Both the position numbers and the translations under genes were made by a program. Below are positions 20,289-27,663 of a stretch of DNA of 27,663 bases, piece after piece (the first letter of the stretch is position 1; each line of letters starts with the position of its first letter). The DNA lies in assembly GCA_964347045.1 (NCBI GenBank), contig CAYFXC010000026.1, positions 1 to 27,663 of the forward strand, in the 5' to 3' direction. A model generated the notes under the pieces. It saw only the letters and a program-made list of their open reading frames with translations. It was not told the origin of the DNA and made no database searches. The DNA comes from an uncultured archaeon (GTDB taxonomy: Archaea; Asgardarchaeota; Hermodarchaeia; Hermodarchaeales; Hermodarchaeaceae).

Positions 20289-20404
20289 AGCGGCTATTAT
20301 CCCCTTAAAGCAAGAAAAAACCTTTGCTTTCCCTGTCACCAATTTAAACTAGATTCGCCCGCAACTGTAAATTTCGACTAGTCGGGAACAAGTCCAATAA
20401 CAGG

Positions 20405-20527
20405 AAAAGTAGCCGTCCACCCCACTAGATTGTTACAACACCCATGTTTCCAGTAGATTCCACTCAAATTCCTTACCGCACATAAGTCTCCAACTATTTC
20501 CTTTTGAGGTATTTTCGAGGTAATGAA
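20405..20527 (-). repeat. Copy of the 16S-trailer repeat
   Basis: cgtccacccca, caacacc..tgtttcc and an exact tccttaccgcaca are shared with 26900-27035. Confidence 0.85.
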
Positions 20528-22151: not shown

Positions 22152-22282
22152 GAAAAAATAGCTGTTCACCACAACTGGCGTATACAACACTAGTTTTTCC
22201 AGCATCATACATCCAGACACCTCACTAGACAAAGAGCCTTGCAAGGTTTCCCTACTAGGTACCTTAGAAGAAATGGGTTTCT
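22152..22282 (-). repeat. Copy of the 16S-trailer repeat
   Basis: A-tract, caacac, tttccagcatcatacatccagac and caaggt...taccttagaagaaatg are collinear with 26900-27035. Confidence 0.85.
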
Positions 22283-23800: not shown

Positions 23801-23933
23801 AAAAAAGTGATCGTCCACACCAGCGGATCGTACAACACCTGTGTTGCTGACATCATACACCCGCTCTGATACTAGAAATAAGTCTTTCAAGGTATCCCCA
23901 CGGGACACCTCAAAGCAAATGCTTCCTTAAGGA
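23801..23933 (-). repeat. Copy of the 16S-trailer repeat
   Basis: aaaaaagtgatcgtccac, caacacctgtgtt, catcatacaccc, aagtctttcaaggtatcc...gggacacct, aaatg. Confidence 0.9.
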
Positions 23934-24716: not shown

Positions 24717-24830
24717 CAAAACGTGGTCGTCCACCCCGGCAAGGGTACAACACCCGTGTTCCATTGAGACTCCTATCAGTGAGACGCTGTTCGGCAGTAC
24801 CCTCGACAACGGTACGTAGAAATAATAGGA
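24717..24830 (-). repeat. Copy of the 16S-trailer repeat
   Basis: tggtcgtccacccc (14 nt) and caacacccgtgtt (13 nt) are identical to the 16S-adjacent copy. agactcct and a residual gtacc/ggtac stem are also present. Confidence 0.88.
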
Positions 24831-26718: not shown

Positions 26719-26899
26719 CAATCTCCACCCATAAACCGGAACCACCAAATACTGTAAACAAAAGCCTGGATAAAAACATCTTGATTAGCGATAACCACTC
26801 AAACCCGGACTCCATATCATCCCAAAAAGGCTTCCCTAAACCCATTTACCAAACCCCAAGCACTAAAACAATGGTACCAAAAATTGGAACACGAAATAA

Positions 26900-27035
26900 G
26901 AAAAAGAAAAATGGTCGTCCACCCCAAAAGCATGGGTCAACACCCGTGTTTCCGGCATCATACACCCAGACTCCTTACCGCACAAAGTCTTCCAAGGTAT
27001 CCACAGCGGGATACCTTCGAAGAAAATGATTTCTT
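26900..27035 (-). repeat. 16S rRNA 3' trailer (hairpins plus terminal U-tract); reference copy of the dispersed repeat
   Basis: Abuts the 16S 3' end. The minus strand forms AAGAAA/UUUCUU, AAGGUAUCC/GGAUACCUU and AGACUUU/GGAGUCU stems and ends in UUUUUCUUUUUC. Confidence 0.85.
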
Positions 27036-27056
27036 AGGAGGTGATCCAGCCGCAGG

Positions 27057-27088
27057 GTAAGGAAGTCAGAGAACGTATCTCCAACCTT
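27057..27088 (-). other. 32-nt BHB-type intron after the A1519 equivalent (h45 loop)
   Basis: Removal restores GGGGAA|CCUGCGGC. GGGG/CCUU central helix, AA|A and AC|C bulges, 10-bp intron stem. Confidence 0.8.
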
Positions 27089-27094
27089 TTCCCC

Positions 27095-27153
27095 TTACCG
27101 CAAGGGCCCGCTCGCAAGCGGGATTTGATCAGTCCAACCGTAGCTAGACTGGT
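27095..27153 (-). other. 59-nt BHB-type intron after the A1513 equivalent (h45 5' strand)
   Basis: Removal restores GCCGUA|GGGGAA. GCCG/CGGU central helix, UA|A and AA|G junctions, two internal hairpins. The boundary is ambiguous by 1 nt. Confidence 0.78.
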
Positions 27154-27184
<31 letters not shown>

Positions 27185-27280
27185 TGCCGAGCCCCGATTC
27201 GACACCACCCACCCATCCGCCGAAGCGGGCAGGTGGACAGCGGCTCATCCAAACTTGACTCGGGTGGAGCGACGGGCGGT

Positions 27281-27343
<63 letters not shown>

Positions 27344-27663
27344 CTGGTGTTGACAGGCGATTACTAGGCATTCCATGTTCACGACGGCGGGTTGCAGCCG
27401 TCGATCCCGACTGTGCCCGGGGTTGTGAGATTGGCTTCCCCTTTCGGGGTTGCGGCCCATTGTCCCGGGCTTTGCAGCCCGCGTGTGGCCCGGGGGTTTC
27501 GGGGCATACTGACCTGCCGTGGCCCCCGCCTTCCTCTGCTTTCTCAGCAGCGGTCCCCTTAGTGTGCCCGGCTACCCCGAAGGGTATCGCTGGCAACTAA
27601 GGGTGGGGGTCTCGTTCGTTGCCTCACTTAAGAGGACAGCTCACGCCACGAACTGGCGACGGC

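Follow-up and report, generated by a model that had tools for sequence, protein, structure and literature searches.

The window analysed here (27,663 nt) is an entire contig, C26, of an Asgard archaeal (Hermodarchaeia) MAG, and its last 630 bases hold, on the minus strand, the end of a 16S rRNA gene that corresponds to the 3' third of an archaeal 16S (Table 1). The archaeal SSU model RF01959 matches 27663-27124 (cmscan, Rfam; 330 bits, E 2.4e-94, model positions 997-1478), and the contig ends inside the gene and cuts off its 5' part. Three inserts, I-a, I-b and I-c, interrupt it, the first in the decoding centre and the other two in helix 45, where the minus strand reads GGUAGCCGUA, 59 nt, GGGGAA, 32 nt and CCUGCGGCUGGAUCACCUCCU. 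Positions in E. coli numbering at helix 45 were obtained by counting back from the 3' end of the 16S. The original prediction had described two inserts of these lengths with GGGGAA between them, and its coordinates match the minus strand exactly; I-a is additional to what it described.

Table 1. Features of the 16S rRNA gene end, in window positions and in gene order (SSU, small-subunit rRNA)
Feature	Position	Strand	Basis or remark
16S exon, SSU model positions 997 to ~1343	27314..27663	-	cmscan
Putative intron I-a, 33 nt, after C1397	27281..27313	-	splits GCACAC and ACCGCCCGUC, decoding centre
16S exon, helix 44 up to GGUAGCCGUA (helix 45 5' strand)	27154..27280	-	sequence and cmscan
Putative intron I-b, 59 nt, after A1513	27095..27153	-	two hairpins and 3' motif CGGUAA (27100-27095)
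I-b hairpin 1, 9 bp	27151-27130	-	UNCG-type
I-b hairpin 2, 6 bp	27122-27107	-	UNCG-type
Micro-exon GGGGAA (G1514-A1519)	27089..27094	-	sequence; holds KsgA/Dim1 targets A1518, A1519
Putative intron I-c, 32 nt, after A1519	27057..27088	-	single 10-bp hairpin, then CCUU (27062-27059) and AC
I-c hairpin, 10 bp	27087-27063	-	
Terminal 16S exon CCUGCGGCUGGAUCACCUCCU (helix 45 3' strand and anti-Shine-Dalgarno tail)	27036..27056	-	identical in relatives

Taking out all three inserts restores the universal GCACACACCGCCCGUC and GCCGUAGGGGAACCUGCGGCUGG exactly, and the insert-free sequence can be aligned over its whole length with the 16S of a relative from the same family (G016, locus L004). The junction of I-b could be moved one base to the left, and only position 1513 satisfies the bulge-helix-bulge (BHB) rule that is described below. 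The inserts are ORF-less. The two hairpins of I-b carry the loops UACG and UGCG, and I-b also has a short CAA:UUG helix. Four independent metagenome contigs (L037-L040) carry the twin arrangement of helix 45, one of them identical to the window and the other three differing from it by substitutions and a 1-nt length change, which indicates that the inserts are real DNA. A contig of the DNA run X1, with three substitutions, spans 27027-27180 and thereby both helix-45 inserts. These contigs answer the doubt, raised with the original prediction, about whether DNA reads support the inserts.

The MAG consists of 83 contigs and is 88.9% complete, and the fragment on C26 is its only assembled 16S; DNA searches and a motif scan of this 88.9% complete assembly found neither a second 16S copy nor another 16S 3' end. 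The end of contig C33 (G000:C33:11999-12073) matches the leader upstream of the 16S in G016, which indicates that the missing 5' part of the gene is merely unassembled; C33 and C26 probably lie next to each other, the gap between them being the first 1000 nt of the 16S, which were not assembled. The stretch of ~150 bp directly after the 16S 3' end (26880-27035) recurs in diverged copies (73-85% identity, same orientation), which lie between genes in the window (20396-20493, 22185-22282, 23803-23928 and 24724-24760) and also on contig C19 of the same assembly (87-195 and 1087-1216).

The inserts also disturb the recognition of the gene by covariance models. The helix-45/3'-end part of the SSU model was placed by cmscan on hairpin 1 of I-b (27141-27124), and the resulting gene end, 27124, comes ~90 nt before the true one at 27036. 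A genome-wide family search with RF01959 gave no match, despite the 330-bit partial 16S in the window. Truncated, intron-laden rRNA genes can escape such a search, and gene annotation pipelines would truncate this 16S gene.

In the window, the Rfam scan found SSU rRNA only and no match to an Rfam intron family. With lengths of 32-59 nt and no match to an Rfam intron model, the inserts do not qualify as group I or group II self-splicing introns. Nor do they sit where expansion segments or intervening sequences would be placed, which is in variable helices exposed at the surface and remote from functional centres (PMC7594248), the sites being the helix-45 tetraloop and the 1392-1406 strand of the decoding centre. 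When the three introns were compared with the whole assembly (blastn-short), no further copy was found, and a mobile repeat family was rejected on this ground.

The archaeal splicing endonuclease acts on two bulges on opposite strands, each of which immediately follows a 4-bp helix on its 3' side, and it cuts after the bulge's second base. Our test for this motif used boundaries that homology fixes and no others; exon bases -6 to -3 were compared with intron bases -6 to -3, and at least three of the four pairs were required. The central helix is complete (4/4) in I-a (GCAC:GUGU), I-b (GCCG:CGGU) and I-c (GGGG:CCUU), and both junctions lie 2 nt 3' of it in each insert. With a slash for the junction, the 5' and 3' bulges are AC/A and AA/A in I-a, UA/A and AA/G in I-b, and AA/A and AC/C in I-c; I-a has 8 and I-c 10 contiguous closing pairs. 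The earlier claim of a 4-bp exon/intron helix with junctions two nucleotides into each bulge therefore holds for both helix-45 inserts. The same cutting rule is kept, with at least 3/4 pairs, in all 20 distinct homologous inserts at the three loci. At arbitrary boundaries in this fragment, a 4/4 helix occurs in ~2% of cases, and a 4/4 helix together with at least five contiguous closing pairs in 0.01-0.04%.

Only the relaxed form of the motif is present. The strict hBHBh' motif, with two 3-nt bulges and with central and outer helices, was not found. The outer helix between the exons is absent in I-a and I-b, which are of the bulge-helix-loop type. I-b has a single contiguous closing pair, and its hairpin 1 follows directly after the 5' bulge to give a three-way junction, while I-c requires a 4-nt 3' bulge (AC/CC) to keep A1513-U1522 and the helix-45 stem in register. 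In short sequence contexts, the enforced BHB form lies ~2 (I-a), 3.5 (I-b) and 8.4 kcal/mol (I-c) above the minimum-energy fold (ViennaRNA). The minimum-energy fold of I-a essentially coincides with its BHB form. For the twin precursor of 140 nt, the gap is ~6-7 kcal/mol, and 11 with both motifs enforced (ViennaRNA). The BHB forms are less stable because a mature-like pairing of helix 45 competes with them; in variants with CCCU or CCCG in place of CCUU, the BHB form comes within 1-2 kcal/mol. The energy gaps and the missing helices mark the motifs as relaxed, and capture during transcription or stabilisation by the enzyme would be needed.

Two other pairings were considered and given up. The minimum-energy fold has a helix between the 3' ends of I-b and I-c (GGUAAGGG:CCUUACC), and this was rejected since two variants (L002 and L037) break the pairing without compensation. 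Hairpin 1 of I-b contains CUACGGUUGGA, which resembles CUGCGGCUGGA of the helix-45 3' strand, and a role as a decoy of that strand was dropped as a mechanism: the stretch is the 3' strand plus loop of a covariation-supported 9-bp hairpin, and a decoy pseudoknot with the upstream exon (exon 1) would leave a 1-nt loop across 6 bp. The likeness may be due to chance or may be the relic of a local duplication.

Compensatory changes were counted in alignments of distinct variants, which are small and related samples of four to six per intron. In each of the three introns, three pairs have changed on both sides, all of them within hairpin 1 in the case of I-b. The proportion of cells that are paired is 92.9% for I-c (six variants), 98.9% for I-b (four variants) and 100% for I-a (four variants), and it falls to 43-68%, 20-40% and 21-65%, respectively, when the partner strand is slid. 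These changes are supportive of the intron hairpins, short of proof. The central helices themselves are invariant in I-a and I-b, and that of I-c varies on the intron side alone (G-C vs G-U); they cannot covary because invariant exon bases are involved.

The distribution of the inserts among relatives is patchy. Within the genus, both helix-45 inserts are present in G008 and the 32-nt one alone in G006 (Ca. Hermodarchaeum yapensis); G016, from the same family, has neither and reads GCCGUAGGGGAACCUGCGG. Farther away, a member of the Freyarchaeia (G053, CP147778.1) has a 32-nt insert at 1519 that shares 22 of 32 aligned bases with the Hermodarchaeia intron, and at 1513 an insert of 167 nt is found in the closed 2.8-Mb genome G029, probably a member of the Atabeyarchaeia described in PMC11291895. 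Homologues of the 1397 insert, 31-33 nt long, are present in G008, G006, G016 and G029; in total, the 1397 insert was found in all four family members with that part of the gene and in G029, that is, in 5 of 400 sampled Asgard genomes.

A further scan, with one genome per species for 185,579 prokaryotic species, looked between exact GCCGUA and CCUGCGG flanks for a total of 20-50 additional bases. There were six matches, all of them in Asgard archaea: those at 1519 come from Hermodarchaeum and Freyarchaeota, and those at 1513, with inserts of 31-34 nt, from three Heimdallarchaeota MAGs and one 'Promethearchaeati' MAG. The survey of positions 1513 and 1519 that had been suggested earlier has thus shown both sites to be occupied in other Asgard archaea. 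Every 1513 intron, in four Asgard lineages and at lengths of 31-167 nt, ends in CGG[U/A]AA, followed across the junction by G. Overall, of the ~200 Asgard genomes whose assembly includes the 3' end of the 16S, only a handful are carriers.

Two further 16S genes deserve mention. In G021 (L023, C23), the helix-45 3' strand has a 31-nt insert after CCUGCGGA (E. coli 1527) that fits the BHB rule, with the central helix UGCG:CGCA, the bulges GA/A and AG/U, and the closing helix AUACAU:AUGUAU; 1527 is a third predicted helix-45 intron site in Asgard archaea. In G006 (L003, C71), a gap of ~720 nt (1320-2042) separates SSU model positions 824 and 862 of the 16S, which suggests a large intron near E. 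coli ~900, possibly with a homing endonuclease gene inside.

The genome encodes the proteins that such introns would require. A 186-aa EndA has both Pfam domains and the Tyr/His/Lys catalytic triad, and among PDB entries it matches best the catalytic subunits of the heterotetramers from Aeropyrum pernix and Pyrobaculum aerophilum. In a 199-aa paralogue the catalytic His is replaced, and this protein also matches the structural subunits 3p1z_A, 3ajv_A and NEQ261. Together, they suggest an endonuclease of the two-subunit, alpha-beta type, which is known for its broad specificity towards relaxed motifs (PMC3239211). RtcB (571 bits) and KsgA/Dim1 are encoded as well, and the host endonuclease and RNA ligase expected for a BHB intron are accordingly present as two EndA paralogues and RtcB. 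Of 36 tRNA genes, 18 have an intron according to ARAGORN, and this number indicates that the splicing system is heavily used; several of these introns sit at non-canonical positions, and a few of the calls are doubtful (691 and 1444 nt).

Our results argue that the inserts at 1397, 1513 and 1519 are ORF-less, relaxed-BHB, protein-spliced introns that are tolerated and not regulatory, a reading to which we give a probability of roughly 0.85 and which appears well supported by the comparative and structural evidence. The original prediction had read the helix-45 inserts in the same way, as ORF-less relaxed-BHB introns that must be removed; the geometry, the patchy presence with exact restoration and the encoded EndA, RtcB and KsgA bear out the class, and we infer the removal from these features. 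In the pre-rRNA, the four exon bases upstream of each 5' junction would pair with four bases near the intron 3' end, and each junction would thereby come to lie two bases 3' of a helix of 4 bp. A cut at both junctions by the splicing endonuclease of the two-subunit (alpha-beta) type would follow, and RtcB would ligate the exons and probably circularise the introns. Splicing at helix 45 would yield the joined sequence GCCGUAGGGGAACCUGCG.

The two helix-45 motifs have bases in common. GCCG (1508-1511) belongs to the central helix of I-b and also to the outer helix that I-c would form with exon 3 (1524-1527), and G1514 serves twice, as the last base of the I-b bulge and in the first pair of the I-c central helix. 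These shared bases prevent both motifs from forming fully at the same time, so sequential removal is expected, and the two introns are most likely removed successively. Either order is plausible, because genes with the 1513 intron alone (Heimdallarchaeota) and with the 1519 intron alone (G006, Freyarchaeia) exist. The helix-45 stem (1506-1513 with 1522-1529) could hold the exons between cutting and ligation.

The loop GGGGAA at the tip of helix 45 contains A1518 and A1519, which are universally methylated and are the targets of KsgA/Dim1. The sequence GCCGUAGG/GGAA/CCUGCGGC would fold as helix 45 and be dimethylated only once both helix-45 introns are gone; since the loop is absent beforehand, dimethylation of A1518/A1519 would have to follow splicing. 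In Haloferax volcanii, which has no such introns, dimethylation by KsgA is late anyway (PMC10351888).

In the RNA data, Logan contigs of three wetland metatranscriptomes (X7, X17 and X18) were placed on 26960-27663 together with those of the DNA run X1. There are RNA contigs that skip the inserts, but their joints have universal flanks of 19-28 nt that fit any archaeon, and many of them bear loop variants of other organisms; none carries organism-specific sequence over a junction. The RNA contigs are short, and over 27080-27151 their number is zero, a figure that is uninformative. Near matches were found to the organism-specific tip of helix 44, with 2 differences (depth ~1100-1900), and to the trailer, with 0 differences (depth ~120-160). 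One RNA contig of X7 (26986-27056) ends exactly at the 3' junction of I-c, where the X1 DNA contig continues.

The inserts could instead stay unspliced, either kept in the ribosome as expansion segments or excised without ligation, as bacterial intervening sequences are, to leave a fragmented 16S. This is very unlikely. It is true that splicing is deduced here from sequence, with RNA joints that are not assignable to this organism, and that, in the minimum-energy folds, a mature-like helix-45 stem persists from which the inserts branch off sideways. However, the sites lie in the helix-45 tetraloop and beside C1400, which are universally conserved functional centres, and expansion segments avoid such centres (PMC7594248). 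If the inserts were excised and the ends left unligated, the 6-nt piece would be lost and the anti-Shine-Dalgarno tail detached. In either case the 'helix plus 2 nt' geometry that is kept in every instance would have no role. The 16S copy in the window might also be a pseudogene in decay, or an artefact of assembly, with an intact copy elsewhere feeding the ribosomes, given a MAG that is incomplete and spread over many contigs and a gene cut by the contig end. We find this hardly credible, since the remainder of the gene fits the SSU model well, the assembly has one 16S fragment and no other 16S 3' end, an X1 DNA contig spans both introns, and other species and independent metagenome contigs share these introns, compensatory changes included.

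A different question is whether the introns serve a purpose. The original prediction had tied splicing to a checkpoint of ribosome maturation, and in its adaptive form this would mean that the two rounds of splicing before KsgA/Dim1 were selected as a device for quality control or timing. One part of that claim stands, trivially: the GGAA loop truly cannot form before both introns leave, and KsgA/Dim1 is encoded. Moreover, the likeness of the 1519 introns of Hermodarchaeia and Freyarchaeia indicates that the element may be old. The regulatory part is weak in view of the relatives of the same genus and family that lack one or both introns and of the small number of carriers among the ~200 Asgard genomes with a 16S 3' end; KsgA is already late in the intron-free Haloferax volcanii (PMC10351888), and the sequence has no sign of regulated splicing. 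A selected gate of this kind is therefore quite improbable. A broader version is unlikely too: the pair, with its shared motif bases, would be an obligatorily ordered two-step unit that includes an ancient 1519 intron, and helix-45 formation, its dimethylation and the final maturation of the small subunit would have depended on the tRNA-splicing machinery since early Asgard archaea, as a timer or quality gate. Here the RNA would refold between the rounds of cutting and ligation, and the 6-nt exon would be kept by base pairing alone. The relatives of the same genus and family without one or both introns argue for tolerated selfish or neutral elements and not for a regulatory device, and the most fitting view of the introns is that of heritable elements which are tolerated and now and then lost.

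Several kinds of rRNA and tRNA introns offer points of comparison. Jay and Inskeep (2015) listed 13 archaeal 16S intron loci (374, 548, 722, 781, 803, 901, 908, 919, 978, 1093, 1205, 1213 and 1391), none of them in helix 45 (PMC4496867), and papers on Asgard archaea describe introns in tRNA only (PMC11291895). In the papers searched for Asgard or helix-45 rRNA introns we found no report of archaeal 16S introns at 1513 or 1519. The original prediction had likewise named none as reported at these positions, and the search agrees, the loci listed by Jay and Inskeep ending at 1391 (PMC4496867). The introns resemble the 'HP' class of BHB 16S introns (<50 nt) of Thermoproteales, Desulfurococcales and Aigarchaeota, which are ORF-less, 30-odd nt long and built on a single hairpin that maintains the BHB, lie in conserved functional regions, are patchy among relatives and interrupt universal primer sites (PMC4496867). 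I-a (33 nt) and I-c (32 nt) belong in this class of single-hairpin introns under ~50 nt, and I-b, with 59 nt and two hairpins, lies outside it. The sites 1397, 1513 and 1519 and the Asgard host also set the present introns apart, and both are apparently new for this known kind of intron.

Introns only 7-8 nt apart are already known in Thermoproteales (PMC4496867). In Pyrobaculum oguniense, Pog.S1205 and Pog.S1213 lie 8 nt apart, and at loci 901/908 the distance is 7 nt, in each case with a micro-exon between protein-spliced introns (PMC4496867). Unlike those pairs, the 6-nt micro-exon described here is the helix-45 loop itself, the BHB motifs share bases, and both introns are without a homing endonuclease, so that endonuclease-driven co-conversion cannot now explain the pair. 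The twin arrangement is an extreme case of closely spaced 16S introns and no new principle.

Relaxed-BHB introns of tRNA genes (hBH, HBh' and bulge-helix-loop) share the cutting geometry, the relaxed or missing outer helix and the (alpha-beta)2 family of EndA (PMC3239211), and Atabeyarchaeia and Freyarchaeia have intron-rich tRNA genes (PMC11291895). Here, in contrast, the substrate is rRNA, and the architecture and specificity of the enzyme are predicted from its sequence. Helix 45 is also an insertion hotspot of group I introns, as shown by S1506 and S1516 of eukaryotic nuclear 18S rDNA (PMC1299323); those are self-splicing ribozymes of several hundred bases, whereas the 32-59 nt found here are too small for such a core.

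Taken together, these observations extend the map of protein-spliced rRNA introns to Asgard archaea and to the sites 1397, 1513 and 1519, with 1527 in a relative; each site falls within the small-subunit RNA's most conserved functional regions. At 6 nt, the micro-exon is below the reported 7-8 nt and offers a compact natural substrate for the handling of overlapping motifs by EndA and the ligase. The 1397 intron splits the 1392-1406 universal primer site, and lineages with such introns may be under-counted in amplicon surveys.
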